Numbered from the stretch's first letter, positions 3,466 through 57,646 are shown. The stretch is DNA of 64,000 bases from Mobula hypostoma (GCF_963921235.1 NC_086107.1:99264001-99328000); one strand, 5' to 3'. Numbers and translations are program-made. Notes: a model not told the origin generated them from the letters alone.

Positions 3466-4294
3466 CCAAGTTTCTTTGCATCCTAAAGACTTAGAGGATC
3501 TAACATTTTCCCATTCTGATTACCTGAAAAGTTGCTTTTATTCTCTCAGAAGTGATCTGCTCTGCTAACTATTTCCAGCATTTCCACTTTGTTTGGGATT
3601 TCTGTACTTGCAGTATTTTGTAACAAAGAATAAAATGATGTGCTGTAGGATGGAAGGGGGGAGGAATAACAGACAAAAACATATTTGGCTGAGTGGTTCA
3701 CTAACACAGGTACCAGAGGCTGCTAAGAAGCCCCTTGACAATTTTCACTGCATTAAACCCACAATTCAAATACCAATTATTGTTACAAACATAGGCTCTG
3801 GTGCTGTGTTAATTATCTATTCTGCTCCCAGCCTTTGTAGATTTTGAGCTATTCGTTGTTTGTCTCTGCAGCTCCAGAATATTTCCAGATGTGCAAGCAA
3901 GTGTTCCTAGGAAGAGACGCGAAAACTTGTATTCTAGCTGGTAAAGTTCTAGACCATCAGACAGACAGTCCTATTACAATGGGTGCCTCGTGGCAAATCT
4001 GAAGATACAAGAGTGAAGGAATGGAATTGAATGGTGAGTGCTGATTTCTCATAAGGCATACGTAAATGGCGAAGACAGGAGAATGGGTTTAAGAGGGATA
4101 GTAAATCAGCTTTGATGGAATGGTGGAGCAGACTCATTGGGCCAAATGGCTTAATTCTTCTCCTATGTTTTGTGGTCTAACCTATTTAGCTTGGTAGAAG
4201 GTTCCTGTGTAAACCAGGGTTTGACTCTCTGTGAACTTGGGTTTCTTGTTTCTGGGGGAGGTTAAACTAGATTTTCAAGTTGTCAATAAATTTG

Positions 4295-4466
4295 CAACAC
4301 ACAACACGCTGGAGGAACTCAGCAGGTCGGGCAGCATCCGTAGTCCTGACGAAGGGTTCCGGCCCGAAATGTTGACTGATCCTTTCCACGGATGCTGCCC
4401 AACCTGCTGATTCCTCCAGCGTGTTGTGAGTGTTGCTTTGACCCCAGCATCTGCAGATTATTTTGT
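4295..4466. mobile_element. Penelope-derived palindromic element with hammerhead-like core
   Basis: Inverted arms at 4294-4341 and 4388-4436. Flanked by the 16-bp direct repeat GTTGTCAATAAATTTG (4279-4294, 4467-4482). The same arm sequence caps the GIY-YIG fragment at 18446-18964. Confidence 0.8.
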
Positions 4467-4621
4467 GTTGTCAATAAATTTGATAGGGTAAATTACAAAC
4501 AAAAGGCATTTGGGGAGGGAGAGGAAAAAAACTTTCAGTAGCATCTAGAGAATTGACATTTTAGGTCGATGACCTATGTTTTGATGAAGGGTAATTGTCT
4601 GGAAATGTTAACTCTTTATTA

Positions 4622-4701
4622 GAGGGGTCCCCAACCTTGGGTCCATGGACACCTTGCTTAATGGTTTTGGTCCATGGAATAAAAAATGTTAGGACCCCCT
4701 G
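4622..4701. mobile_element. Small hAT-type MITE
   Basis: Ends GAGGGGTCCCCAACC and TGTTAGGACCCCCTG. Flanking 8-mers CTTTATTA and CTTTAGTG match at 6 of 8 positions. Confidence 0.55.
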
Positions 4702-5304
4702 CTTTAGTGAATGCCATCTTTCCTGCTGAGTATTTTCTGTTGTTTTTTTTCTCAGAATTTCAAAATCTGCAGTATTTTGCTCCTGGGCTCCCTTTTTAAG
4801 GAGCTTCCTGAGAAAGGAAGATAAAGTATAACCCACAGCTAGAGCAGAATAGCGCAGAGTGACACAGGAGTCTGGGTTGAGGTCAGTGCAGTCATGCTAC
4901 ATTCCCAAGGGGAAGATTAGTCGATCCTCACTAATTACAAAAAGCTGACACTGGATATCTGGAGGGAATGCTGGGAATAGCATTATGTGAAGGGATTGTT
5001 TTATTTTCTTTGTAGAAAGGAGTGTGGTGAGATTTGAGGTTAAAGGGTATTGATAAAGTATTTAGGGAAATACTGGTTCCATTACCAGGTGAGCCAGTTA
5101 CCATGGGAACCAGATTTAAGATATTTGATAACAGAACCTGAAAGTGAAATGTAGAATGTTGAGTACTGAGTTGTGCTCAGGTGCGTTCTACCTGAAAAGC
5201 AGATTCAATAGTGAGACCAAGCGTTTAGCACCATAACAGGGCTGGCACAGTCACAGTGGACAATATGGCCTTCCATGCCACACAGTTTTGTTACTAAATT
5301 GTTC

Positions 5305-6030
5305 AGAATCAGGTTTAATATCGCTAACACGTGTCATGGAATTTGTTGCCTTTGTGGCAGCAAACAATACAATACATAATAGGAAAAGACACCTCTGAAT
5401 TACAGTAGGTATATATATTAAATATTTAAATTAATTAAGTGCAAAAATAGAAATAAAAAAAAGTAGTGACGTAATGTTTGTGGGTTGGATGTCCATTCAG
5501 AAATCAGACGGCAGAGTGGAAGAAGCTGTTCCTGAATTGTTGAATATAAGCCTTCAGGCTTCTGTACCTACTGTCTGATGGTAGCAATGAGAACAAGGCA
5601 TGACCTGGGCAATGAGGGTCCTAAATGATGGACACTGCCTTTTTGAGGCACTGTTCCTTAAAGATGTCTTGGATACTACAGAGGCTAGTAGCCATGATAG
5701 AGGTGACTAAGTTTACAACTCTCAGCAGCTTATTTCGGTCCCGTGCAGTACCCACCCCCCATATCAGATGGTGATGCGGCCAGTTAGAATGTTCTCCACG
5801 GTACATCAGTAGAAATTTGCGAGTGTCTTAGGTGACATACTAAACCTCAAACTCCTAATGAAATATAGCCACTGTTGTGCCTTCTTTGAGGCTGCATCGA
5901 TATGTTGGGTCCTGGTCAGATCCTCAGAGGTGTTGACACCCAGGAACTTGAAATTTCTCACTCTTTCCACTTTGGATCCCTCTGGGAGGATTGGTGCATG
6001 TTCCCTCATCTTACCCTTTCTGAACTCCTA
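5305..6030 (-). mobile_element. Rex1/Babar-type LINE 3' fragment
   Basis: ORFs 5806-6009 (VERVRNFKFLGVNTSEDLT..KKAQQWLYF) and 5621-5806 (ARDRNKLLRVV..CLKKAVSII). Confidence 0.8.
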
Positions 6031-7994
6031 AAGTTCTGAAGTTATTGAAGGTTCCATGGGAAGCAGCCATTTTGGGAGATGTTGTCATGGATGCAGAGCG
6101 AGAATCATGTTTATTATTAATGAACAAGAAAATTTGCAGAGGCTAGAAATCAAAGTAACACACACAAAATGCTGGAGGAACTCAGCAAGCCAGGCAGCAT
6201 CTACGGGAAAGAGTCACCATTATTATTACTGGAATATGTTGTCAAGATGTGTCATACAGTGTGGGAATCATGGGTGGCAGGGGTTTTACTAGAATAGAGT
6301 ACAGTTCCAAGGCACAATGCAGTTCAGACATGAATTTATTTTAAAAAACTTCCTCGACAAACACGTCCATAACGGAAAACAGCAAACCTCAAGAGTGTGA
6401 GATCACTGTGCTTTGGCCAAACCAAAAAATTCCAAACAATATAAAGACAACTGCTATGAGCCCGCATTTTGGTATTGAAGAGGTTGCTATTATTAAATAA
6501 CAGAATGTGATTCTGTCCTCCATGACTCTAGTAGTCAACTGAACAGTTGATATTAACGTGGGTAATATTTTTAGGTTGGGCATGAAGGAATATACAGCCG
6601 AGGCAGGCAAGTGGTGTTAAGTAGAAACCAGCTAATGGCATGATGGTACATCCTGGTGGTATAATGTGAAATCTGAAAGATTTCAGAATCAGTGGAGCAT
6701 AAACACCTGGAGAAACCCAACAAAATGAAGGTTGAGGAGATGAACTTTTGTAAACTGTCGAAGCATTGGCAGATTGGGTGCTGAGATATGTCACAAGCTT
6801 GGATGCTAGAGGGAAGTTGGTAGGGAAATGGAACTGATGCGTTGGAAGGTCAGAAGCTATTTCATAAGAAAATAACACATGACGGGTTACAAGCTGAGAA
6901 TTAAAATATGTCTGCAGGGAATTTCCTGAGTGAGACAGAGCAGCATATGAATAAATTGGCAGGAATGATGAAAAGTATGTAACGAATGTTGGGAGTGGAG
7001 TGGGGTGGGGGGAGCATTAGTGTCAGGGTGAGTGCCTTTTCCTGTATGAATGGGCTTTGGATTGGGGAGGATTGGACGGGAGGGTAAAGCAGAAAGCATC
7101 TGTTGAAGAATACAAATACTGTTCCTCCAGTCAGCAAGTGGTTCAAGCTCGATGTGTTCTGGCAAGTGTGAATATACTGTACATTCTTCCTGTCCCAGAA
7201 TATGTAGTGCACAGCCTTTGAGTGTAACTTCTGACATGTTTGAGTTTATCTACTATCCGAGCAAAAGTTGCAAGTCTGTGGAAAATCTCTCTCAGCCTTG
7301 TGCTTCTCCTCTGTTCTCTACCTGTCCCCATGAATCCCACCTCTCTGTTTGGATACCTCTGTTCTTGAGCAGGGACTTTGAGTGTTGGGAGACAACATTA
7401 GCTGGATCTGACTTGGCTTCTATGTTGACCCACTCAGATCGCGCTCAATTGTAGGAGTCCCTATAATGTTGAGCTCCTATTCCCTGATTGCCTTCTGGAC
7501 ATAAGCACCATTTCAGCCTTTTTTATTCCAAAATTGTGCTTTGTCTGTAGTTTATGCAGTAAAAGCAATTGAGATGTGTTTTTCTGTGTGATTATGGTAT
7601 CATCAATTCAATACTTCCTCTAAAAAGAACATTTGAGCTGTAGTTTATTTCAGGGTGGTATGGGGCAGGGATGAGGATATTAGAAAAAGAAGCAGGAATA
7701 CACATGCATCTGCTCCACCTTTCATTAAGGTTATGGCTAATCTTTTACTATTGTACAATTTCCCCACACTAATTCATAAACCTTGATAATTTTAATATGT
7801 ATATATCTATTAATCTGACCAGAACGCGCTCATGGTTCCACAGCCCTCTAGGTCGACCCTTGCAAAAGTCTTGTCCTGTATCTGTCCTGAATGCCCAGCC
7901 TCTTACTTTGAGGATCTTCTCTAGTTTTTGACACCAGCCTAGAGAAATTTCACTGCTCCCTGCATCTCCCTTGGTCTCTTTAAGAATTTTCGAA

Positions 7995-8530
7995 CATAGA
8001 AAAGTACAGCACAGGAACAGGCCATTCACCCACTGTGTTGTCCCATACCAGCTAAAAAGCAAATCAAAAACATCCAACACTAATCCCTCCTACCCTCACA
8101 ATGTCCATATCCCTCCACCGTCCTTACGTCCATGTGCCTATCCAAACATCTCTTTATAACCTCTGATGTACTTGTCTCTACCATGGTACCAGGCAGCGCG
8201 GTCCAGGCATCCACAACTCTCAAAGTAAAAAAATTTAACCTGCCACATCTCCCTTGAACCTACCCCTTCTTACCTTCATTGTGTGCCCTCTAGTATTAGG
8301 CTTTTCAGCCTTGGGAAACAGACACACCCCATTTACTCTATGCCTCTCATAATATTATAAACCTCTATCAGATCTCCCCTCAGCCTCCGACACTCCAGAG
8401 AAAACAGCCCAAGTTTATCCAGCCTCTCATGATGGCACATGCCCTCTAAGCCAGACAGCATCCTCTTCTGCACCCTCTCCAAAGCGTCAAGTTGCAACAA
8501 AACCTCTTGACTTTTGAACTCATTGCCTCG
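7995..8530 (-). mobile_element. CR1 LINE 3' fragment
   Basis: GAACATAGAAAAGTACAGCACAGGAACAGGCC tail, followed by CR1 C-terminal coding sequence on the minus strand. Confidence 0.7.
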
Positions 8531-9573
8531 ACATTTGTATGTCTTAATGAACTCAATCTTATTCCATAAATCTTTCTAGGGTATAGATCTAGTTCCTTTT
8601 AATCTCTTGCTGTACAATAAACTGCCCATTTCAGGAATCAGTCTGGTGAAACTTTGTTCCACTCTTATCATAAGCATATCCTTACCCTGAGTAAGGAGAG
8701 CAGACTGATACACAGTTTGCTAGAGGATTTTGGTAGAATGCACTGTTTACCTTCTAATTACTTGTTGTGTCTGTGTGTTAAACAAGGACTTTCACACATG
8801 TCCCTCTGCATGCTTATTTTTTTCAGTCTCTCACCATTCAAATGCTCTGATTTTCTATTATTTTTCTCCAAGGATAGAATAGAATAAGGAAAAATGTGAG
8901 GTCACATGTTTTAATAGAAACAAAGAAAAGAATCTAGCATTTCAATGAGAGATTGAAATGTGTTGGTGAAACTCAAGTGTGTTAGAGAACAAATCATTTT
9001 TAAATTATCATGCTTGTGCAGTAAGCAATACCTTTTGCTAATTTTTTCCATTTTGTTTATCTATAGAAACTTCCATAGTCTGTTATTTTTCTGTTTCTCA
9101 CTAGATCATTCGTATTCTTTTCCCCTTATCAGTGTCTTGGTGTTCTTTGCTGATTTTGCTTCCGGACTATGAGCAAATTGTTCAGGAGCCAAGAATTGGC
9201 CTTCACTCTGACCATGAGTGCTCAGTCTGTTTCTAACCTTCAACACAGTTTTATTTTGAAAACGTGAGCTTATTTGTAAAATTGGACAATTATGAATGGA
9301 CCTGAATATAATGCTAGGATTTTTATTAATTTCTCAATCAGCATTCAATAAATGTTATTAATTGTAGCTTGCAATAAATACTGTAAGTCACCCTATGGAG
9401 TTAATGATTACCCCTTGCACTGAATACACTGTGCAGGTGTGCCAACTGACCCTTGCTTTGAGTAAATAGCCGATCTTTACCGATGCATAGTGAGCAAGTC
9501 TGCTGAATGAAGTTACTGGGGCATGCCCCCTGAATAAACAGTGCCTGTGTAAAATCAAGGTATGTCAACCTTA

Positions 9574-9730
9574 GACACAAGAAATTTTGCAGATGCTGGA
9601 AATCCTGAGCAACGCACACAAAATGCTAGAGGAACTCAGCAGGTCAGGCAGCATCTATGGAAAAGAATGAATGAATAATCTGGTTCCATAGATGCTGCCT
9701 GACCTGCTGAGTTCCTCCAGCAGTTTGTTT
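9574..9730. mobile_element. Penelope-derived palindromic element
   Basis: Inverted arms GAGGAACTCAGCAGGTCAGGCAGCATCTATGG and CCATAGATGCTGCCTGACCTGCTGAGTTCCTC. The ribozyme-like centre is absent. Confidence 0.75.
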
Positions 9731-10384
9731 GGTAAATTTGCCTACTCTCATCTTTTGCAAAGCTAACCTAAGTTACAGAAAACCCATGTAAGAGAGTTGT
9801 GCCTTTTTAATGTATTTATATGTTGTCTGTGTGTGACACTGGCTGGGCAGAATTCATTGTCCTTCCCTCTACAATGAGTTGTATTTCAGAGGGAATTACA
9901 TCTGGTGCCACAAAAGGAAAAGATTCCTACTTCGAATCACTTTGAATCAGAGGAGCCTTAATGTTAATTATGTTCACTATTGCTGAAACTTTTTTGATGC
10001 AGGTATATTTAATTAAATTTAGATTCCATCACTGTTGTGGGATGGACCTCATTTCTGATCAATTTTACAGGACTCTAGATTCTATACCATACAGTCATAC
10101 TTGATGTTTTGTTTTCCTGCTTGCTTCATCCATTTGACTTATTTGCCAGCGCCTACTCCTCAGCAAATTTTGAATCTTGGTCCCAATTATCCACTCCCAT
10201 TATCTCAGATTTCTACCCTCTCCCCATTTTCTATTACCCTCCCTACCCTTGCCCTGGTTTAGGAGTTAGTGACCATGAATTTTAAGAGCATAAGTCACAG
10301 GGGCAGGGAAATACCATTCGTCCCCTTGATACTGCTCTACCATTCAAGGTAATGGTTGAATTCCTACTTTAAAACCATTTCCTG

Positions 10385-10955
10385 TCCTTGCAAGGAATGT
10401 AGAGCACAAGAATAGGAAAGTTTTGAAGCAACTTGCTGCAGTTGAGACAGAAGACAGACTTGGTCTCCATATTTAAGGAAGGATACACTGGCGATGGAGA
10501 GCAGGTTCACTGCTACTTGCTGAGTAAAAGGGTTGGCATATGAAGTGTGACCAACTTGAATCTGTAGTCATTTGTATTTGGAAGAATGAAGGGTGACCTT
10601 ATTGAAGTACCAGATTTTGATGGGGGGAGGGGGGATTAAGAGTAGATGAAGGGACTGGCGGAGGATGCTTCCCCCAGCGGCATACCTAGAATGGAATAAC
10701 TTATTTTCAGAATAAGGAATCGCCCATTTAACAGAGATATGGAGAAATTTCTTCTGCGGGTTGTGACTCAGAACTGTGGAGACAGAATCATTGAATATGT
10801 TCAAAGTGGAGGGACTGGTGTATTTGATCTACAAGGGAGCTGGGGCATATGGAAAAAGCTGGAGGTAGTGTTAAGGCCAGAATACATTGGCCTTGATTTC
10901 ATTGAATACTGGAGCAGGCTGAGCAACTGATTGATCTACACCTGTTTCTTATGCA
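10385..10955 (+). mobile_element. Degraded CR1 LINE 3' fragment
   Basis: Degenerate WSPYLRKDTLAME and RMKGDLIEV motifs and a CR1-type 3' end. Confidence 0.65.
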
Positions 10956-11689
10956 TTAAATCTGGGAGCCAAATATTCAACGTTTAGGAAGGGTGTAAAA
11001 TGGAAAAGGGGGTTGATAAGGGATGGCATCGATAGATTAGTTGAAAGGGAACTTGGCGTGGTAGATGATAGCTAGAGTTAGAATCAGTTTAGGTGGAGCT
11101 ATGATTCGGCAGGGGACAGAAATCGTTGGTGGAAATTGCTTGTGGCCTCCAGTTAGTGGTTGTGTTGCAGGGCACAGTATAAAAATATCATTCTGCAGAG
11201 GGATCCCTCAAAGTATCCTCATAATATGATAGAGTTTGCATGTAGTGCAAAAGTGGTTTTCGCCTGGGCTTTCTGTCTCAGCCAGCAAAGATTTGAGGGG
11301 CTCGCTGGCTGTCTTGGAATAGAAACCCACATTAAAGTATATGTTATTGAACAGCCATAGCAGATGTTTTTTCTTAAAATACAATTGAACGAATGTGCAT
11401 TCCTTTAACTCACAAAGACACAACATTGGTTCAACCATGGGCTGTAGAGAAAATTAAATCTAAGGAAAAAGTATTGCAGAGCTACCGGAATAAACAGTAA
11501 GCCTGAAAATTGGCAGGATTTTGGAATTCTGCAAAAGAGGAACAAGAAATTATAAAGAAAGGGAAAATAGAATGAGAATAAATTGAAAAACTTCAGTTCT
11601 TGGACTCGCCACTTTTAGAATCATAGCGTCGCACAGCTCAGAAACAGGCCCTGTGACCCAACATCAACCACCCATTTTCACTAAATCCA

Positions 11690-11945
11690 CAGTAGTGTAG
11701 TGGTTAGCACAACTCTTTACAGTACCAACGATCCGGGTTCATTTCCTGACGCTGTCTGTAAGGGAGTTTGTATGTTCTCCCTGTGACCGCGTGGTTTCAC
11801 TCTGGGTGCTCAAGTTTCTTCTCACAGTCTAAAGATGCATCGGTTATAAGGTTAATTGTAAATTGGGCTGGGGTTAAATTGGGGGTTGCTGGGCAGCACG
11901 GCTGGAAGGGTCTATTCCACGCTGTATCTCAGTAAATAAATAAGT
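11690..11945 (+). mobile_element. tRNA-derived V-SINE
   Basis: A box GTGTAGTGGTTAG, B box GGGTTCATTTCC, V-domain GAGTTTGTATGTTCTCCCTGTGACCGCGTGG..CAGTCTAAAGA and a (TAAA)n tail. Confidence 0.8.
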
Positions 11946-13028
11946 AAACAGGCTTTCCCATCAACACCCCCAGACTCTACCACTCACTTCACTCTAAACC
12001 AAGATACAGCAGTCAGCTAACATGCCGAGCTGCAGTTCTAGGGAACGTGGGAAGAAATTAAAACATGGGTCACGGAGAGAACGTGCACGCTCCACACAGG
12101 CAGAATCTGAGGTGTGATTGAACCTCAGATGAGTTGTTTCTGTAACTGATCTATTGTACTGCCTGCTGGCAACTTCATAAACCTTTCCCTTGGATTTGAT
12201 AATATTTTACTTGTGAATGCATACATCAGCTCTTTTTACTATTTATTTTTTGTACCCAAGGGAAAGTATATTTGGTGCAATTATGCATTATTTCTCTAAA
12301 TGCCAGCCATTACCCATTAATGTTGTTCTCCCAATTTACCTTAACCAACCTGGCCTTAACACTTGGAAAATTAAAAAAAAAACAAGTACAGATGCTGGAA
12401 AGCTGAACTCAACAGAAGTTGCTGGGATACTCAATAAGTCAAGCAGTATCTGTGGAGACAGAGAAACAATTTGCATTCCAAGACATTGATGCTTATCACA
12501 ACAGTCTGCTAGCTATTTCAAGCACTTTTTGTTCATTCTTTTGTTTCTTAGTTTCACATTGAACTGCACCATGTACAGACAAGGTTAAATTTTCTTTTAC
12601 TATGGTTAATCTTTCCTAGTGGCTGCTTTATAAATGACTTTTAATTAATTGTACAGGGACAAGATCTAAAATGGCCAGTTTCCTAGTTGGTTCTTCAAAC
12701 TAAAACCCATCTCTTATTACAATGCAGGAGTTTATCTACTTTCTTAGTAATAGTTTGATTTTCTCCGTATGTAAGTTGAGTCTCCTATGATTACTGGGGC
12801 CCCAGTTAGTTCCCTGACTTCTATCCTGCATTACAATAACTATTTAGAGGGCTACAAACAGCCTACACTCTGCTGCTTAGCTGTGATTATCCCTGCCCTA
12901 GGGAAATGATTCTTGCTCCATGTCTCTGGGTACTCTGGATATTGCCGATACTTATTTTTGTTTAACAATCTCGACTCTGCTTGATTTCTGCAGAACCTGC
13001 TGGGGTACGAACCGTGCAACACCGCAGC

Positions 13029-16000
13029 ATGCAGTCCTACCGAGAGCAGAGCAGCTACCACGGGAGCCAGAGGCTGCTGCACCAAGAGGCCCAGGAGTCT
13101 GCCCGCCTGAGCGACTATAACCAGCACCACCAGGGCCCAATTTACAGCGGCTACAGCAACCGACCAGTCAGCGAGGGCTGTGACCAACAGCTGTACCCGC
13201 CCTTCCGCAGGGAGCCCGCTGATTACTATTACTCAAGGGGGAAGGAACTGACCAGCACCCAGGTTCAGCGCAGGTTGGGTGGGGGGCTGCAGAGTGGCTA
13301 TGGCACGCAGCAGGCTGGCAGCTACTCCGTGCAGTACTTGAGCGAGGGCCAGTGGCGACCTCCACCCACCTCCATGCCAGGCTATGGACACTTTGAACAG
13401 GACGTATACACCAGTCAGTTTTCTCCAGGTACCTCTCAGCAACAGCTGCGACACCAGTCCTTCCAAGCGACTGCCAGCAGCCAAGGACTGGCCCAAGCCC
13501 CTTCCTCCACCGCTCACCTTTCCCAGCTTCTCCACCAGGCTGGTTCGGGCCTGCAGGCCAAGTACCAGCACCGAGCAGCCCAGTACAACCCCCAGCAGTT
13601 TCAGCCCTCCTCCACCACCTCTACCACCACAACCACCACCTCCACCTCCTCCTCCTCCTCCTCCTACCTGTCTCCTCAAGGCTACAGCCAGCCCCCTGGT
13701 CAGGCATTTGATGGCTACCATGCCAGTGCCAGCAGCCAGTGCGATGGCTACACAGTCAATGCTGCAGTTGCCCCCGGTTACGGTACCCAGGCTGGCTACA
13801 GCTACCAGCCACCTGTAGCCAAACCCTGCTTCGAACAGGCAAAACCACCGTCAGGCCAGCAGCATACCCAACGAAACCTGCAGTACCCCGCCACCGCCAA
13901 GATGGCCCTGCTCAACCAGCAGTTTGGTTCTTATTGCACAGCCGACATTCCTGCCAAATCGCCCATGCCATTCCACCAGAACTTTAGCCCCGGTTCCAAC
14001 CCCTCACCAGCCACCCCTGTGGCCCAGTCCCCCTCCTGCAGCTCCACCCCGTCCCCCCTGCTGGTCGGCGGCGACGGCCTTCAGTGCAGTGCCGGGTCCA
14101 TTGGCATCGGGGCAAGGGGCCGCCTCCTGCAGCAGATGCCCCATCCCAGCCCCACCCCAGCGGGGCTGATGTCCAGCCCCAGCTCCCAGTCTGCCACCTA
14201 CGAAGGCTTTGGCCTGGAGGGCGGAGGGGAGAAGAGAGCGCCGGACCTGGGCCTCAGCAGCCTTACTGCTCTGAGCTCGCAGGTGGCCAACATCCCCAAC
14301 ACAGTGCAGCACCTGCTCCTCTCTGACTCGCTGGCCCTGCAGCGCAGGCAGGCCCGCCGTTCCGCCAAGAGAGCGGGAGCCCCAGGGGAGCTGCCAGGCC
14401 TGGAGGAACAGCTGAAGTCGCCCCGGGCAGACTCCCTGGATGGAGGCTGCTCCAGCTCCTCGGAGGACCACGCGGAGCGGGTCCGCCAGCTCAGCGGGCA
14501 GAGCGGCTGCTCGGAGCGGGCCCTGAAGCCACGCCACCCCGAGGCTGCCAATGCTACCTGCTCGCCGGCCGGCTCCCATGGCGACGGACGGCCGCTCTCC
14601 AAGGAGGAGCTGATGGCCCAGATGTGTCAGGAGGGCAAAGGCAGCGCCGTGGCGACGCTGGCGGAGCCAGGACCCCAGCGAGGCGAGAAGCCGGTGGGTG
14701 TCATTGTGTCAAGGGAAACTATGGCTGGGAGGGCAGAAGCAATGGGCATTGCTGGGCAAGAAGATGAGCACGCCTACACTGTCAGTAGCGAGAAGGTGCC
14801 TGGCCGTGGCCAGCAGCCCAACAGTAGCCGCAGCACCACGGCAAGATCAGCAGCCCAGAATGGCAACGGCCTGGGGCACCAAGGTCATCCGGCGCCTGGT
14901 GACCCCATGGCTACTAGGTTGGACTCCTCCAAGTCCCCCAGCTGCTTAGCTTACGGTTTCCGGGACATGCCCAGAAATGAAGGGGGGTACCATCAAATGC
15001 AGTACCCCAGCACCCCTTACGGCCAGCTGGAGACTGAGCAGTTCACTTCTGGGGACAGGAAGGTCATCCCAAATAAGGCTGAGAAGAGCCACAGTTTGCT
15101 TCAGGAAGCCCTGCAAGCCAACTATCCTGCAAGGAAGTTCCATCCAAACTATGTCCCTGACCTGCAATTTTCGGGATTCATGGATCCCTTGCTGCAGCCT
15201 GGCTACCCCATGCGACAGATGTCTGAGGTGACGAGAAAAGACGTCCCAAGTCATGCCACAGCTTTGCCCTCTGGTTGGGTAGATGGGAGAGCACAAGTTC
15301 CTGGCTTTGGCACCGAGCAGGGCAGGGCTGACCTGGAGACCCAGCTTGAAGGTGGGATGTCAGAGAGGAAGTCCGTCATCTGCGACTTCTCCCCATCAAG
15401 GCAGTTTGGCCGTAGCTCTACACCTTTAACCTGTGGGCAGTCTCATGATCAAGAGTTTTTCCGGAACGTGAAGGGTGACAAGTTTTGCAAAGCAGGACAG
15501 TCGGTTATCCAGACAGGTCTTCCTGTAATGTCAGAAACACGAATAAAAGGTGAGATGGGCCAAGGTCTAGGTCAGCAAAGGGCTATTGGACATCACGATG
15601 ACAGAGACCCAAGGACACTCTCACCCCCCTGGAAGTACGATACTTCACAATTGGTCAGGGGTTCCACAATGATTTCTACTCCGATGCCCATGGGACCTGT
15701 CAGTAACTTTCCCCATCAGCCTCTGAACAACCGATCCACCAGGGCAAGGCGTCCCTATGGCAGGGGGGCAGGCAGAGGCGGGGTGAGGAGGAGAGGTTCA
15801 GCAAGGGCAGATGGCAATGCTTTCCTGACAAGGGCACCACTTATCAAACAGGAAGGTATGCTGGAAGTTGGCAGAGCCGGGCACCTTGGCCAATCTCGTG
15901 AACACCTGCCAGCATTATTGGACAAGATCGCCATGTACCCTACAAACTCAGATACGCTTTCCTCCCTGTTAGCCAAGCAAGTGAATGCTTGTTCCTCGGG

Positions 16001-18023
16001 TATGGAGTCGGAAGGCACGGTCAGGTATCCAATTCATCCACCGAAGCAGATGTACAATCTTAAAGGGGTGGGTGATTGGACTAACACAAATGACGTGAAA
16101 ATGCCTGCTGCAGAGATGTGCAGGAGCAGGATTCAGAAAGAGCCAAGACTCCCTGATGCCACGCAGCAGGAAGCAGGTAGCCACCCCTCGCTCCAAATGT
16201 ATTTGCCTCAGAGTCATGAGGCCCAAAGCCCACAGCTGGATGATCAGTCAGCGTCCATGGGCAAGCATTTGCCTAAAAAGCAAAACAATACGAGTCAGGA
16301 GGACTCATCGGTTCAGTCCTCTATTTTGTCAAGGAGAAGGATAAGATCTTTTATATCACCGATTCCAGCCAAGAGATTTTGCCAAGAGCCAAAAGCCAAG
16401 GACCCCCTACACCAGCGTGACCCTGCCGACTCTCCGTGCAGCGCCAGCCTAACCCCCGTACAAAAGCCTGAGGCTGCCGATGAGTGCCAGCAGGTGAACG
16501 ATGAGAAGGGCAGCCCCGGTGGGAGCCTTTCTCCAGCTGCTTCCCTCGCCAGTCCCGGTAAAACTAAGACACTGCCACCGCGGAAGGGCCGAGGCCTAAA
16601 GCTGGAAGCAATTGTGCAGAAGATCACGTCACCCAATGGGAGGAAGTTTCCGCCAACTGGGATGCTGGATGGGGCCTCAGACGGTCTGACACTAGAAGAC
16701 ATCCTGTCCGTCAAAGAGGCTGGTTGGGAGAGAGGCAGCGGGGCAATGGTGCAGGCTGGGTACAAGATGGATGGAGATCCCAAGGAAGGGGCTGAGGAAC
16801 AGGCTCGGGGCCCTGGGGCTACCTGTCAGGAGCGACATTCCAACTGCTCCCAGCTCTGTGGAGCCTCCTCACCATCTGCTCGGGCTCCGCATCATCCTGA
16901 GTCCAATCAGTGCGGTGCCGTATGCCCTCTGCCCTGCCCCCTGGCGCACCAGGCCGGCGAGGGGACCACTGGTGTCACCCCTAAGGCGGAAGTTGTGGTT
17001 GCAAAGGGATACTTCCCGTCTGGCAAAAAGCGAGGGAGACCGCTGGGGAGTATCAACAAGCAGAAACGCCTCCGGCAGGAGTGCTCAGGCCCCCGGGCTC
17101 GGGATGAGGCAGAGGAGGAGAAGGCCAAGGCTAAGGTGAGGCCCGAGAGGAAGAAACCAGTCTCCCACCCGAGGAGGCGCCGCAAGCGGCTCGACGGCCC
17201 CGTCGTGCTGCCCCAGGAGCCAGAAATCAAACTGAAACACACTGCTCGAGTGACGCGCAGGAGGCGGGGGGAGTCCCAGGATAAGGGCTTCTCTCCCTAC
17301 GTGTTGCTGGAGAGGAATCGTGAGGTGGCGCTCTGCACTATAATCAACACCCAGGATGATCAGAACAGTATCCAGAAAGGAGTTAAGGGTCACCAGGGGC
17401 CAACCTCCACCCCACCACCCAGTTGTGCTGGCAAAGCCTTACCAACATCCTCACACATGGTGCAAGGGCCACTGGTGACTGACTCCCCCACCCTTGGCAT
17501 CTTGGTCTGCTGCTTGTGTGGCAAATGTGCCAATCACAGGGACCTGGGCGACCTCTTTGGACCCTACTACCCTCACCAGTATGCTGGCACCCTGCCCAAG
17601 AACCCACCCCCGAAGAAGATAGCACCGGTGCAGAGCCGGGTGGTGAGGCACAGGAGCATGCCCGACCTGCTAAAGACTGGCCAGTCGGGAGACGAGAGCA
17701 AGGAGTTTGGGACTGTCCTGGGGCACCCCAGGTTCAAAAGGCGTCACTACAGCGAAGATTGCACCCCTTCCTGGGCCAGTCCCAGGAGCAGCAAAGGGCA
17801 CCGCCGCTGCTACTGCTGCATAAAGACTTCCTCTGTCGACTTACGGACTCAGAGATTTAAAAGTGAGCTCGGCCCGCAGGTGGAGCTACAGCTCCCTCAA
17901 CTACCTCTAGACCCCAATGAACTGTGGATCCACGAGTCCTGTGTGCTCTGGGCCAGTGGGGTCTACCTGATCTCTGGGAGACTCTATGGACTGCAAGAAG
18001 CTGTAGAAATGGCTAGAGAGACG
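13029..18023 (+). CDS. TCF20: Transcription factor 20 (TCF20/SPBP), giant first coding exon, 1665 codons
   Basis: Starts MQSYREQSSYHG. Contains LTALSSQVANIPNTVQHLLLSD, KTLPPRKGRGLKLEAIVQKITSPN, the AT-hook KKRGRP (17025-17042), PQEPEIKLK, and the ePHD start CCLCGK..DLGDLFGPYYP..ELWIHESCVLWASGVYL..GRLYGLQEA. Acceptor TTTCTGCAG|12994; donor ACG|GTAAGG at 18023, phase 0. Confidence 0.95.
13608..13664 (+). repeat. Coding (ACC)/(TCC) trinucleotide tract, poly-Thr/Ser
   Basis: Encodes SSTTSTTTTTTSTSSSSSS within TCF20. Confidence 0.9.
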
Positions 18024-18445
18024 GTAAGGATTGCTGCTGTGTTTTGTGAGGGTGTTGCCGGTGGTTGGGTGGGGATAGAGTGCGAGTATGTGGCTATGCT
18101 TTGAGAGGGCCTAAAGCTTCCTATTCCTTATGAATTATCCTCCCACCCCTTCTCCACGAAGAACTAGTCTGTCTCTTCACTTTTATATAAGGACTGCTTG
18201 TTGCAGTCTGCTGGATTTTTTTTTGTCCGTGGACCCCAAAGCTTTGTCCATTAGAGAGCACTTCCAGTAAGGATTGAGTGTTCCTATCTCCAGATCCCAT
18301 GCCCTCTGCCAGCCCATTGCATACATGTTCAGGATTTCTCCTTAACTCTTTTCACCTCTCTACTACCCTTCAAACCTAATTCTTCACCCAAGCTTTTCCT
18401 CACCTCTCCTAATATCTCCTTCCGTAGACCATGTTAATTATTTTT

Positions 18446-18964
18446 CAAGCAACGCACACAAAATGCTGGAGGAACTCAGCAGGCCAGGCAGCATCTATGG
18501 AAAAGAGTACAGTCGACGTTTTGGCCTGAGACCCTTTGGCAGGACTGGGGCGAAAAAAAGCTGAGTAGATTTACAAGTTGGGAGGGGAGAGAAATACAAG
18601 GTGATAGGTGAAACCTGGAGGGGGAGGGATGAAGCAAAGAGCTGGGAAGTTGATTGGTGACAGAGACAGAAGGCCATGGAAGAAAGAGAAAGGGGCAGAA
18701 ACACCAGAGGGAGGCAATGGCAAGGAGATACTGTGAGAGAGGGAAAAGGGTAATGGAAGTGGTGAAGAGAGGGGGGTCATTACCAGAAGTTCAAGGAATC
18801 AATGTGCGTGTCATTAGGTTGGAGACTACCCAGGTGGAATATAAGGTGTTGTTCCTTCAACCTAAGTGTGGCCTCATCACAACAGTGGAGGAGGCCATGG
18901 GTAGACATATCTGAATAGGAATGGGAAGGGGAATTAAAATGGGTGGCCACTGAGAGATCCCGTT
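18446..18964 (-). mobile_element. Penelope-like element 3' fragment (GIY-YIG C-terminus plus pLTR)
   Basis: Minus frame DLSVATHFNSPSHSYSDMSTHGLLHCCDEATLRLKEQHLIFHLGSLQP. TSD TTAATTATTTTT at 18434-18445 and 18965-18976. Confidence 0.85.
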
Positions 18965-27516: not shown

Positions 27517-27732
27517 CAAACAAGAGAAAATCTGCAAATGCTGGAAATCCAAGCAACACACACAAAATTCTGGAGGAACTCAGCAGGCCAGGCAGCATCT
27601 ATGGAAAAGAGTAAATGTTTCGAGCCGAGACCCTTCATCAGGACTGTTGAAGGGTCTCAGCCTGAAAATGTTTTCTCTTTCCCATAGATGCTGCCTGGTC
27701 TGCTGAGGTCCTCCAGAATTTTGTGTGTGCTA
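27517..27732. mobile_element. Penelope-derived palindromic element inserted in CR1
   Basis: Inverted arms. Near-TSD CTATCCACCTGTGT / CTATCCCCTGTGT. Minus-strand CAGTCCTGATGAAGGGTCTCGGCTCGAAAC. Confidence 0.8.
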
Positions 27733-45185: not shown

Positions 45186-46804
45186 ATATTTTTATAGTAC
45201 AAGACCAGCAGTGATTTAACAATGAGACCGATTGCTCAAACAGTTGCTGTAGGGCCAGGTGTTTTACAACTGGTTAAATACAGTGAGGCAGGAATAATTA
45301 GTATGAGATCCTTTTGAGGAAGTCTGATCAGAATATGATTAAAATTTTACATTTAGTCAGAGCGTGAAGGCCATATCTTGCAGACAGTGGAATGGGTGTG
45401 AATGGGGTGGAGGAAATAGTGGATGGAAATTAGATTAAAAGTCAAAGTGAGAGATAAGCAGTACTCGTAATGAATGAAATATTACATTATTCTCATCAAA
45501 ATATGGAAAAAGGAAAAGCTAGGCTAAATTAAATATTTATAATGATAAGAATAGGGGTTGTGAGAATTTTAGAAAACAACAGTGACTAAGAGAACAAACA
45601 GACTGCTGGAGGAACTCAGTGGGTTGAGCAGCTTCTGTAGGAGGAAAGGAATTGTTGACATTTCAGGTCAAAACCCTGCATCAGGGCTTCAGATTTCAGC
45701 ATCTGCTGTCTCCAGCATTATCTAAAACTTTGGTAATTGGGGAAGAGAGTAAGCTACCAAGAAATATAATGGTCTGAGTAAAGGAAGGGAATGGCAAAAG
45801 TAAGTGCTGGTCCTCCAGAAGTAGAAGTGGGAATTAATGGAGAATAAGGAAATGTTAAATAATTTGTATTTGTCTTCACACAACCTCCAGCTTATCATGG
45901 ATATTCGCTTCTGATGAAAGGTCAACAGCTTGAATTATTAACCCTTTCTCACTACAAGATGCTGCCCATCCTGAGGATATCCAGATATTTCTGTTTTTAT
46001 TCTTGTTTTGAGGTACCTGCTGCTTTTTGAACCCAACATTGGTCCTGGGGTCCATCATAAAGAAATAGTAACAAGGTGCATAGAAAATGATGTTGCTGTT
46101 AGAGTCAACGTGGACTTATGAAAGAGAAATAGTATTTTTATAATAGTATTGATTTCACTCAAATTGTAACCACAGAGCGGATAAAGTCAGTGTGGTCATC
46201 TAGATTTCCTATATCAATCAAGAAAATCCCACAAGAAGATTTGGCCATGAGATCACTTTAAGGGAATATCAAAGACTAGCAATCTTACAAAACCATAGGG
46301 ATGAACAAGTCACTTCTAGATTGCTGTTCCTGATCAATGGTGGTAAGTTGCTAGGAGGATACAGAGTGCTGAACACAGCGCTGATCTTCTTTAGCTTCAC
46401 TTGATGAATTCCTGTTTTAATTATGGCAGTGGTCCTATGTGTCTGGAGTTAAAAATGCCAGTTGATGTTCCTAAAGCAAAGTTCTGGGGGTGGGGGAGGG
46501 ATTGTTCACTGGATGGATGTTGTGAGGTTGTTTCCACCAGCAAAGAATCTAAAATCAGAGTATATAGTCTCAGGATCGGAGGACCACCATGCAAGATGGA
46601 TGAGGAGGATCTTCTCAGGTTTCTGAATCATTGTAATTCTTCATCTTACCACTGTGGATGTGGATTCCCAAGGACAGATTAGAGAATATCATAAAATGCA
46701 TTTTGGACACATTCCCCAAAATGGGCATCAGGGAGGAAATCTGGAATTGCTCTGCACAGATATCTGTAAGAGCAGTCTTGATCAATGGATGGGAAATGGC
46801 CAGA

Positions 46805-47390
46805 GAAAAGCAAGAGATTGTGAACTTCAGGAAGGGGAAGTCAGGAGAACACACATTAGTTCCCATTGAGGGGTCAGTGGTAGAAAGGGTGAGCAGCTTC
46901 AAGTTCCTGAGCATCAAGATCTTGAAAGATGTATCCTGGGTTCAACACATTGATGCAACCACAAAGAACACATACTTGCAGCTCTACTTAGGAGTGAGGA
47001 GATTCTGTTTGTCACTGAAGACTCCAACAAATTTTTATACATGTTCAGCAGAGAGGAATTTGACGGTTTGCATTACAACCAGCTCCATCACAGGTACAAC
47101 CCTTCTCACCATCGAGGACATTTTCAAAAGATGGTACTTCAAGAAGGCAGCATCCATCAGTAAGAACTCTTACCATCCAGGAGATGCCACCTCCTCATTG
47201 CTACCATCAGGAAGGAGGTACAGGAGCCTAAAGACCTACACTGAACAATTCAGGAACAGCTTCTTCACCTCTGCCATCAGATTCCTGAACCATCCACGAA
47301 CACTATCTTCTTTTGTAACTTACAGACTTCTTGTATCTTTGCTGCTGCTGCAAACCAAATTTCATACCATATAAGTCAGTGATGATTGAG
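46805..47390 (+). mobile_element. Rex1/Babar-type LINE 3' fragment
   Basis: EIVNFRKG..VERVSSFKFL..HPGDATSSLLPSGRRYRSLKT..FRNSFFTSAIRFLN. Confidence 0.85.
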
Positions 47391-56105: not shown

Positions 56106-57646
56106 GTATAACCATATAACAATATAACAATTACAGCACAGAAACAGGCCATCTTGGCCCTTCTAGTCTGTGCCGAACTCTTACCCTATCCTAGTCCCAC
56201 CAACCTGCACTCAGCCCATAACCCTCCATTCCTTTCCTGTCCATATATCTATCCAATTTAACTTTAAATGACAACATCGAACCTGCCTCAACCACTTCTG
56301 CTGGAAGCTCGTTCCACACAGCTACCACTCTCTGAGTAAAGAAGTTCCCCCTCATGTTACCCCTAAACTTTTGTCCTTTAACTCTCAACTTATGTCCTCT
56401 TGTTTGAATCTTCCCCACTCTCAATGGAAAAAGCCTATCTACATCAACTCTATCAATCCCCCTCATAATTTTAAACACCTCTATCAAGTCCCCCCTCAAC
56501 CTTCTATGCTCCAAAGAATGAAGACCTAACTTGTTCAACCTTTCTCTGTAACTTAAGAGATGAAACCCAGGCAACATTTTAGTAAATCTCCTCTGTACTC
56601 TCTCAATTTTATTGACATCTTTCCTATAATTCGGTGACCAGAACTGTACACAATATTCCAGATTTGGCCTTACCAATGCCTTATACAAATTCAACATTAC
56701 ATCCCAACTCCTATACTCAATGCTCTGATTAATAAAGGCCAGCAAACCAAAAGCTTTCTTCACCACCCTATCTACATGAGATTCCATCTTCAGGGAACTA
56801 TGCACCATTATTCCTAGATCCCTCTGTTCTAAAGCATTCTTTAATGCCCTACCATTTACCATGTATGTCCTATTTTGATTAGTTCTACCAAAATGCAGCA
56901 CCTCACATTTTTCAGCATTAAACTCCATCTGCCATCTTTCAGCCCACTCTTCTAACTGGCCTAAATCTCTCTGCAAGTTTTGAAAACCTACCTGATCATC
57001 CACAACACCACCTATTTTAGTATCATCTGCACACTTACTAATCCAATTTACCACCCCATCATCTAGATCATTAATATATATTACAAACAACATTGGACCC
57101 AGTACAAATCCCTGAGGCGCACTGCCACACACCGTCCTCCAATCTGACACAGTTATCCACCACTACTCTGTGGCGTTTCCCATCTAGCCACTGCTGAATC
57201 CATTTTACTACTTCCATATTAATGCCTAACGATTGAACCTTCCTAACTAACCTTCCATGTGGAACCTTGTCAAAGGCCTTACTGAAGTCCATATAGACAA
57301 CATCCACCGTTTTTACCCTTGTCAACTTTCTTAGTAACCTCTTCAAAATATTCAATAAGATTTGTCAAACATGACCTTCCACGCACAAATCCATGTTGAC
57401 TCTTCCTAATCAGACCCTGTCTATCCAGCAAATTATATATACCATCTCTAAGAATACTTTCCATCAATTTACCCACCACTGACGTCAAACTCACAGGCTG
57501 ATAATTGCCAGGTTTACTCTTAGAACCCTTTTTAAACAATGGAACCACATGAGCAATATGCCAATCCTCCGGCACCATCCCCGTTTCTAATGACATTTGA
57601 AATATTTCTGTCAGAGCCCTTGTTATTTCCACACTAACTTCCCTCT
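56106..57646 (-). mobile_element. 5'-truncated CR1 LINE, RT to 3' tail, frameshifted
   Basis: Overlapping ORFs 57279-57632, 57071-57355 and 56191-57150: VPEDW..YQPVSLTS, VYMDFSKAFDKVPH, PQGFVLGP..ADDTK. Short tandem tail. Confidence 0.92.

Follow-up and report, generated by a model that had tools for sequence, protein, structure and literature searches.

Endonuclease-bearing Penelope-like elements (PLEs) are defined by a coding layout in which a reverse transcriptase (RT) carries a C-terminal GIY-YIG endonuclease (PMC4209133 and, in the accessible part of that text, PMC8557442). As described in the accessible part of Craig et al. 2021 (PMC8557442), the canonical PLE unit has a pseudo-long terminal repeat, an adjacent inverted 5′-truncated copy and, at one of its ends, a tail of 30-40 bp. 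The minimal hammerhead ribozymes of these elements have a nucleotide that separates position 9 from 10.1, a G10.1-C11.1 pair, a short helix I, a palindromic 15.2-16.2 and no helix III; dual motifs have been found on opposite strands, 100-700 bp apart, and such hammerheads do not cleave as single motifs but cut once a second copy pairs with them (Cervera & de la Pena 2014, PMC4209133). The purified protein of an anole PLE (PAc) cuts and extends both target strands, and its RT starts at two adjacent internal RNA sites that lie 85-92 nt beyond the point of hammerhead cleavage and whose spacing equals the tail (Frangieh et al. 2024, PMC11167929). In the same system the hammerhead cuts only in the presence of the protein, hammerhead mutants leave insertion unimpaired, and the two target strands show no preference between the two start sites in vitro (PMC11167929). 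Here we describe a 172-nt, hairpin-shaped insert with a hammerhead motif at positions 4295-4466 of a 64,000-nt stretch of Mobula hypostoma DNA (GCF_963921235.1 NC_086107.1:99264001-99328000), the whole of which we call the window. Our reading, to which we assign a probability of roughly 0.88, is that this insert is a dead-on-arrival, extremely 5′-truncated PLE insertion and that its hairpin is a scar of integration. The kind of insertion has already been described; what is new is the family in this genome, with about 10^5 copies of the motif.

The insert is bracketed by a perfect direct repeat (16/16; GTTGTCAATAAATTTG) at 4279-4294 and 4467-4482. In three related copies (L002, L003 and L004) GTT or GTTT precedes the right duplication and is absent from the left flank. 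Since the first three bases of the repeat, GTT, may therefore be the element's own 3′ end, the true length of the target-site duplication (TSD) in the window would be 13-16 bp. Between the repeats, an inverted repeat of about 48 bp (4294-4341 with 4388-4436) holds the hammerhead motif, 4342-4377, in its loop. An earlier note on this DNA, made from the sequence alone, had reported this arrangement, with the hammerhead string on the plus strand and the perfect 16-bp repeat outside, and the sequence confirms it. Complementarity is 96% for the arm pair 4319-4341/4388-4410 and 95% for the pair 4297-4317/4411-4431, with additional pairing of 4294-4303 with 4427-4436, and arm-to-arm identity is 92% over 50 nt. 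The predicted RNA fold of the 172 nt has a free energy of -94.6 kcal/mol (z = -9.6), which none of 200 shuffled sequences equalled. The features of the locus are as follows.

4279..4294, no strand: left copy of the TSD, GTTGTCAATAAATTTG, a perfect 16-nt repeat with 4467-4482; true length 13-16 bp
4295..4341, minus strand: inverted arm of 47 nt, a reverse-complement copy of the part of the 3′ module at 4388-4436
4342..4466, plus strand: final 125 nt of the PLE 3′ module in forward orientation, with 97-98% identity to the 3′ ends of L019, L020 and L026-L030
4342..4377, plus strand: putative minimal type-I hammerhead motif, from the sequence, a 46-copy alignment (A1) and the published feature list
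4373..4374, plus strand: predicted scissile bond, 3′ of position 17, from hammerhead numbering only
4437..4466, plus strand: 'tail' of about 30 nt between the short and long termini, in the forward copy only and not in the inverted arm
4467..4482, no strand: right copy of the TSD, the repeat of 4279-4294
4034..12992, plus strand: probable host intron with the insert in sense, from contig ends, splice signals and an open reading frame (ORF)

The two outer ends of the insert differ. The one at 4295 is a 'short' terminus, which lacks the tail of about 30 nt and is found at the same outer position in 23 other hairpin copies. The forward copy finishes at a 'long' terminus, ...ATTATTTTGT.

We searched the window's own assembly (3.48 Gb, 200 contigs) for the source of the insert. 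The 172-nt query gave 3,039 first-look candidates, and 40 of these were scored. Seven of the 40 (L019, L020 and L026-L030) match 4342-4466 only, at 97-98%, and run on upstream into CT-rich PLE 3′ untranslated sequence; L026 is 5′-truncated and has its own TSD. A further 23 of the 40 are hairpins like that of the window, at 86-91% identity. Upstream of the 125-nt tail, L028 and L029 contain open frames that encode a YIDD-type polymerase motif and a domain like GIY-YIG, and in both the coding frame stops about 290 nt before the hammerhead, unlike PAc, whose ORF starts inside the hammerhead. The 796-aa open frame of L045 matched Pfam RVT_1 at 31.8 bits (cut-off 29.6), and all four endonuclease-region translations aligned with profile positions 2-68 of GIY-YIG (21, 19.6, 20.4 and 14.6 bits). 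The order RT, endonuclease, tail was the same in L028, L029 and L046, and the RT piece gave 52,274 first-look candidates in the genome. A comparison with the ESM Atlas, used as a lead only, placed RVT_1, HTH_animal and DUF8422 among the nearest named clusters, some of which have GIY-YIG in 26-27% of their members. The derivation from Penelope that had been proposed earlier is thus borne out, the same 125-nt tail following frames of the RVT_1 and GIY-YIG types, and at the level of sequence the origin of the insert from an endonuclease-bearing PLE is confirmed.

Two of the seven relatives, L029 and L030 (G000:C12, ~197.07 and ~196.97 Mb), are one PLE copy that occurs twice, some 100 kb apart, with identical flanks and in opposite orientations. 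They represent either a segmental inverted duplication or an assembly duplicate and were counted as one locus, so that there are 6 independent relatives. The long copy L046 (G000:C1:184676500-184686000) is a partial tandem at oriented positions ~1790-2860, where an upstream PLE copy adjoins its 5′ end; this upstream copy has no hammerhead and stops at ...cacctggaacctacca, about 200 nt before the point where the 3′ end usually lies.

At least 14 junction types were found among 24 hairpin copies, in which the outer ends were common and the turns differed. The start of the forward part ranged from 24 nt upstream of the motif to about 17 nt inside it, and the inverted arm stopped about 15 to 62 nt into the module. 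Diagnostic variants agreed between the two arms of a copy and differed between copies, and both variants were present in ORF-linked tails, which indicates that both arms of a given event came from one RNA or from sister RNAs. These 24 hairpins had been picked by their similarity to the window hairpin, a sample that is biased either way. We dropped the claim that stem II of the hammerhead is a hot spot for turns, as it accounted for 0 of the 7 turns read in copies that had not been selected by similarity.

Three further samples extended this picture. The first comprised the first 30 pattern matches along contig C1, which correspond to 29 insertions and are positionally unbiased. Six of the 29 had an inverted copy of the same family within 1.5 kb upstream, and the single ends, called long or short by eye, were 15 long, 14 short (about 30-35 nt shorter) and 1 interrupted. 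All 5 assessable inverted pairs in this sample combined one long with one short terminus, with duplications of 10-14 bp. The second sample consisted of 11 loci found through the RT protein, 5 of which had an inverted tail of the same subfamily 1.9-2.7 kb upstream, each pair again combining a long with a short end; in L038 and L040 the long end sits on the inverted copy. The third was the window itself, which contains two more mini-hairpins, both on the minus strand and with different junctions. In the one at ~9577-9722 the forward part begins past the hammerhead, leaving a hairpin with a one-sided tail and no ribozyme motif. The other, at ~27517-27730, belongs to another subfamily; its forward copy has the whole motif (core CTGATGA...GAAACATT), its inverted arm enters the motif, and its flanking duplication is about ACACAGG(G/T)GGATAG. 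Taken together, the tail was at exactly one outer end in 13/13 assessable inverted pairs (5 unbiased, 5 RT-anchored and 3 in the window). Among the first 100 matches on C1, ten pairs of motifs lay less than 1 kb apart, with 9 in -/+, 1 in +/+ and 0 in +/- orientation.

Duplication lengths ranged from 10 to 16 bp across copies. The distance beyond the predicted cut site is 93 nt for the long terminus and about 63 nt for the short one, and the former compares with the 85-92 nt at which RT starts in the anole Poseidon element PAc (PMC11167929). As read from sequence, the insertion therefore has the published anatomy of a PLE, with 5′ truncation, an adjacent inverted truncated copy and a tail at one end. 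The inverted copy lies upstream, the tail is about 30 nt and the duplications are variable and AT-rich, all as in the canonical unit of the accessible part of Craig et al. 2021. Because junctions vary, arms match by subfamily and the inverted layout recurs at the kilobase scale, we interpret the hairpins as by-products of PLE integration. At just 172 bp in all, the insertion shows its two junctions, its two termini and its duplication together, and such copies provide a cheap genomic read-out of PLE integration, with two start sites about 30 nt apart, one per end.

The following steps would account for the window copy. The PLE enzyme would nick both target strands, 13-16 bp apart, and each nicked 3′ end would prime reverse transcription of PLE RNA. 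On one strand synthesis would start at the outer, 'long' internal site and give a cDNA of 125 nt, whereas on the other it would start at the inner, 'short' site, which lies about 30 nt further upstream, and give a cDNA of 47 nt. The two cDNAs would then be joined, each templating completion of the opposite strand, and the position of the hairpin around the ribozyme would be wherever synthesis chanced to stop. For the window copy, dual-strand priming and joining is what we infer from this anatomy. A stronger proposal is that the two nicked strands always prime at different start sites, such that the mini-hairpins record a coordinated two-strand integration. Were each end drawn independently from the 15:14 split, we calculate that one long and one short terminus in 13/13 pairs would arise by chance about 1 time in 8,000. 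The genomic pairs thus differ from PAc in vitro, for which no strand preference was seen. We put this stronger proposal forward tentatively, and would sooner expect it to fail than to hold; if true, it would imply an asymmetric, two-headed integration complex.

Twin priming offers a parallel outside the PLEs. Ostertag and Kazazian reportedly explained the 5′ inversions of L1 in this way in 2001, the second target strand priming on the element RNA. Second-strand priming yields an inverted 5′ segment in both cases. In L1, however, the inverted piece comes from further upstream and is primed by chance microhomology, whereas here both arms come from the same region and have fixed starts.

The hammerhead motif of the window copy reads AGTC-CTGACGA-A-GGGT(TCCG)GCCC-GAAA-TGTT-GACT on the plus strand of 4342-4377. 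Helix I is formed by 4342-4345 with 4374-4377 (4/4 pairs), the C3-A9 box CUGACGA is at 4346-4352 and GAAA (G12-A15.1) at 4366-4369, in the type-I order. An unpaired A at 4353, between positions 9 and 10.1, is a feature of the minimal hammerhead. Helix II consists of 4354-4357 with 4362-4365 (4/4 pairs) around the loop 4358-4361. The earlier note was right that a stem II is present, but had read it as GGG/CCC with a 6-nt loop; it is instead a 4-bp stem, GGGU/GCCC, one pair of which is U-G, capped by a UCCG loop. Positions 15.2, 16.2 and 16.1 are U, G and U (4370-4372), and position 17 is U at 4373, which is not G and is thus of a cleavable type. The cleavage site that had been predicted, 3′ of 4373, is the correct one by hammerhead numbering. 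The helix III word of the window copy is A-U-G-U in place of the palindrome A-C-G-U. As 15.2-16.2 is TG, helix III of a dimer would hold two G-U pairs (A-U, U-G, G-U, U-A). The motif pattern CTGANGAAGGG..GAAANGTT had one match in the window, compared with a mean of 0.00 over 100 dinucleotide-preserving shuffles. To judge from its sequence, the window copy has the features given for the minimal hammerhead of PLEs in Cervera & de la Pena 2014, apart from the palindrome, which is weakened, and it fits the PLE-type minimal type-I hammerhead to which the earlier note had assigned it.

A degenerate hammerhead-like word, TGATGAAGGGT...GAAATGTTAACT, is present at 4582-4613, 236 nt downstream of the motif. 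Its stem II is broken, and its helix I would covary (AGTT/AACT). When 4540-4700 was searched against the genome, just query positions 66-161 matched, which belong to another repeat, and the word at 4582-4613 was not recovered as part of a repeat.

We next consider whether the motif is kept in the family. From 212,338 bases of sequence we obtained 47 copies that cover the motif, 46 of which were aligned (A1) after removal of the duplicate L030. CUGAYGA, the extra A (column 12), GGGU/GCCC, A13-A15.1 and three of the 4 helix I pairs were at least 90% conserved in this alignment. G12 and the C2.1-G1.1 pair were more variable, at CpG sites, and N7 likewise varied mainly as products of CpG decay. 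The earlier note had taken the loss of CUGANGA, GAAA or helix I pairing from the family consensus as an outcome that would speak against a hammerhead; CUGAYGA, GAAA and helix I were all kept. Helix cells were paired in 92.1% of cases (86.6% for helix I and 97.6% for helix II), and in 1.5-49% when the partner column was slid. Over 41 distinct rows, the 10.1-11.1 pair was GC 31 times, GU 9 times and AU once. Every feature of the motif was kept in 20/47 copies.

Most of the variation was at the CpG sites N7-G8, C11.1-G12, C15.2-G16.2 and C17-G1.1, where it appeared as TG or CA. Among the 47 copies, positions 15.2-16.2 were CG in 21, TG in 16, CA in 8 and other in 2, and position 17 was C in 26 and T in 21. 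The window's word had earlier been taken for a product of CpG decay. CpG sites are indeed involved, but most copies read GAAACGTCGAC, with two CpGs, rather than GAAACGTT, and the T at 4370 did not arise in place. It is shared by the window copy and all 7 of its nearest relatives (6 independent loci), which argues that it was inherited from the source lineage; C occupies this position in 82% of the genomic contig depth, the contigs of the sequencing runs pooling all genomic copies.

Across four subfamilies that were compared, the 60 nt upstream cannot be aligned and the 36-nt motif is near-invariant. A near-invariant motif beside flanks that have diverged beyond alignment argues for selection on the motif in the replicating elements. 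Although the motif is apparently under selection, the youngest subfamily carries U15.2 and thus tolerates a weakened helix III word. The motif opens the 3′ module, and after it conserved blocks continue up to the 3′ end (GATGCTGCC, CCTGCTG.GTTC, GTGTTGCTT and CAGCATCTGCAGA). In the genome, a degenerate pattern that tolerates CpG decay matched 49,447 times forward and 49,572 times reverse, 99,019 in all, whereas the reversed-pattern control gave 0 and 0.

The commonest subfamily (L051/L052, L053, L057, L064, L074, L075 and many pattern matches) reads GGGTCTCGGCCT, that is, U at 11.1 and a G-U pair. Because the other CpGs of this subfamily are intact, the U at 11.1 seems to have been inherited rather than to have decayed. 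The words GATGCTG/CAGCATC and CTGCTG/CAGC are invariant across the four subfamilies (for example 4390-4397 with 4445-4452). They could form a long-range stem around the short start site, possibly a fold that RT recognises. As the consensus contains no variation in these words, the predicted stem speaks neither for nor against such a structure.

Several observations weigh against our interpretation of the insert as a hammerhead-bearing PLE product. Every sample consisted of tens of copies among about 10^5. Covariation was weak: double changes occurred in 3 pairs only, and 7-27 of 500 shuffles reached the observed covariation values. Since compensatory change is scarce, the support for the helices is conservation and not compensation. 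The search with hammerhead models that had been suggested as a check found no Rfam hammerhead, either at the gathering score over the whole window (0 matches) or at E<=10 on 4200-4700, where the 8 matches were all sub-threshold hairpin look-alikes; we attribute this to a motif that would lack helix III. Modelling of the monomer favours a fold in which GACG of the core pairs with 15.2-17, at -8.6 versus -7.9 kcal/mol for the window copy and, for the same alternative fold in a copy with an intact motif, -10.1 versus -7.9 kcal/mol. On the protein side, all four GIY-YIG scores were under the Pfam cut-off of 22.6 bits and would not decide the assignment by themselves, and a PDB sequence search with the endonuclease region gave 0 matches at E<=1. 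The two long-frame copies that we examined, L045 and L046, have no hammerhead upstream of the ORF, whereas the published rule places one in both flanking repeats. In a related organism, contigs gave no cover in bins 4206-4273 and 4512-4545, and no listed joint spans the insertion, so that coverage decides neither its presence nor its absence there. Finally, 9-10 of the 24 hairpins turn at or near stem II, which might mean that a small lineage was copied from a hairpin.

This last observation is what would be expected if the hairpins of about 170 bp formed a non-autonomous family of their own, in which a hairpin-shaped, ribozyme-bearing master RNA was recopied by PLE enzymes. Each hairpin keeps the 3′ ~100 nt where RT starts, which makes trans-mobilisation conceivable, and non-autonomous PLE derivatives have been reported (in the accessible parts of Craig 2021, PMC8557442, and of the Li et al. 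2026 preprint). A master hairpin would nonetheless be hard to reconcile with at least 14 junction types in 24 copies, and the copies that turn at stem II come from two parental haplotypes, GACTGATCGTTTCC and GACCGATCTTTTCC, with arms matching within each copy, which means that this turn arose at least twice. Moreover, the forward part of the window copy is 97-98% identical to ORF-linked tails, against no more than 86-91% for other hairpins, and the inverted layout recurs at the 1-2.7 kb scale. The view taken in the earlier note, that the units are a mobile non-coding family, is thus not supported by the junctions or by the kilobase-scale copies, and we regard it as quite improbable. The stem II turns could also be explained by a single cDNA that starts at the long terminus, folds back and copies itself, with no second-strand priming. 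Stem II (GGGTTCCGGCCC), ACGT and GTCGAC are self-complementary, and nascent cDNA could fold there. Such a snap-back should reach the 5′ end of the cDNA and duplicate the tail, but 13/13 second arms stop about 30 nt short, at a fixed site. In addition, the turn of the window copy has a 46-nt loop and a junction without fold-back homology, and purified PLE protein cuts and extends both strands (PMC11167929). We consider this explanation unlikely.

Two further possibilities leave PLE integration aside. The sense position in a probable 5′ intron and the very stable hairpin, together with a weak similarity to mir-1791 (37.4 bits against a gathering score of 75), might suggest that the host has taken the insert over, either as an intronic self-cleaving switch on a TCF20-like pre-mRNA or as a hairpin that feeds small-RNA pathways. 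The microRNA scores are half of the thresholds, however, and any long hairpin would give as much; the window has no partner motif on the sense strand, and the insert is one among about 10^5 like motifs. To judge from the perfect 16-bp duplication and from the young copies to which it is 97-98% identical, the insertion is recent and unselected, and a host function is accordingly very improbable. That the insert is a miniature inverted-repeat transposable element (MITE) that happens to hold hammerhead-like words is an idea to which we give almost no credence. Its inverted repeats look terminal and a direct repeat flanks them, but the inverted repeat is not in fact terminal, a 30-nt unpaired tail being present on one side only; duplication length is not fixed, varying from 10 to 16 bp between copies; and the arms copy the 3′ end of an RT-encoding element. 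An integration scar of a truncated PLE thus remains our preferred reading. Hairpins of this type can mimic MITEs, microRNA precursors and novel ribozyme elements, and annotation should mask them as PLE fragments.

The window copy is probably inert as a ribozyme. Self-cleavage appears unlikely because the motif is single, its helix III is weakened and it has no partner in sense close by. The window's further PLE tails, at 6124-6221, 9577-9721, 18447-18546, 27529-27645 and 45605-45688, are all on the minus strand. The U at position 17 of the window copy also counts against activity, although U is permitted there by the NUH rule. No sequencing run recorded as RNA contains the insert stretch. A microRNA precursor was considered as a candidate and rejected, its best Rfam match, to mir-1791, staying below the threshold (37.4 versus 75 bits). 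As one of about 100,000 copies, and most likely inert, the insert should not be taken to regulate the TCF20-like gene, and its significance for this locus is small.

Compared with the minimal hammerheads of PLEs in PMC4209133, the family shares the type-I topology, a short helix I (4 bp here, 4-5 reported), G10.1-C11.1, the lack of helix III and, in the copies with CG at 15.2-16.2 (the largest share), the palindrome at these positions. It also resembles them in that thousands of mostly solitary copies occur per genome and that close pairs lie on opposite strands. Helix II differs from that of the Schistosoma motif, with 4 bp and a tetraloop here versus 7-8 bp there. The 99,019 pattern matches exceed the 4,000-9,000 quoted for coelacanth and Xenopus (PMC4209133). 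Unlike in published minimal hammerheads, the motif was only downstream of the ORF in two long copies, and the commonest subfamily has U at 11.1. Non-LTR (long terminal repeat) retrozymes, as portrayed in the accessible parts of PMC7229834 and of Li, Clavereau & Pollet 2026, are likewise non-coding, hammerhead-bearing and evolutionarily tied to PLEs. In these accounts, however, they form head-to-tail tandems with canonical hammerheads and circular RNAs, whereas the present insert has a single motif, an inverted arm and a duplication of the single-integration type. A non-LTR retrozyme was therefore rejected as a candidate for this locus, which has one plus-strand motif and no tandem; only 1/10 close pairs on C1 was +/+.

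The position of the insert relative to a host gene was inferred from three types of signal. A 1,712-aa open frame at 12966-18104 on the plus strand starts MQSYREQSSYHG at 13029; we take it to be of the TCF20/RAI1 type, and closer to TCF20. Contigs of runs X9 and X10, which are presumed to be RNA and come from two studies and two organisms, match 3900-4033 throughout with 0 differences and end at 4033, whereas DNA contigs run past this point. A donor, G|GTGAGT, starts at 4034, and an acceptor, ...ctgcag, ends at 12992, just before the 1,712-aa frame. Contig ends, splice signals and the ORF argue, with weak to moderate force, that the insert probably lies in sense 260 nt into a 5′ intron of about 9 kb, which makes the sense orientation and intronic position suggested in the earlier note plausible.

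Other open frames in the window are at 56191-57162 on the minus strand (323 aa) and 46637-47374 on the plus strand (245 aa); from its motifs, the 323-aa frame is presumably an RT fragment of another retroelement, of the long interspersed nuclear element (LINE) type. The insert itself is adjoined by two other, very high-copy repeats, at 4070-4205 and 4614-4715, for which the contig depth in run X1 was 909,240 and 99,428, respectively. The repeat at 4614-4715 gave 1,093 first-look candidates in the genome.

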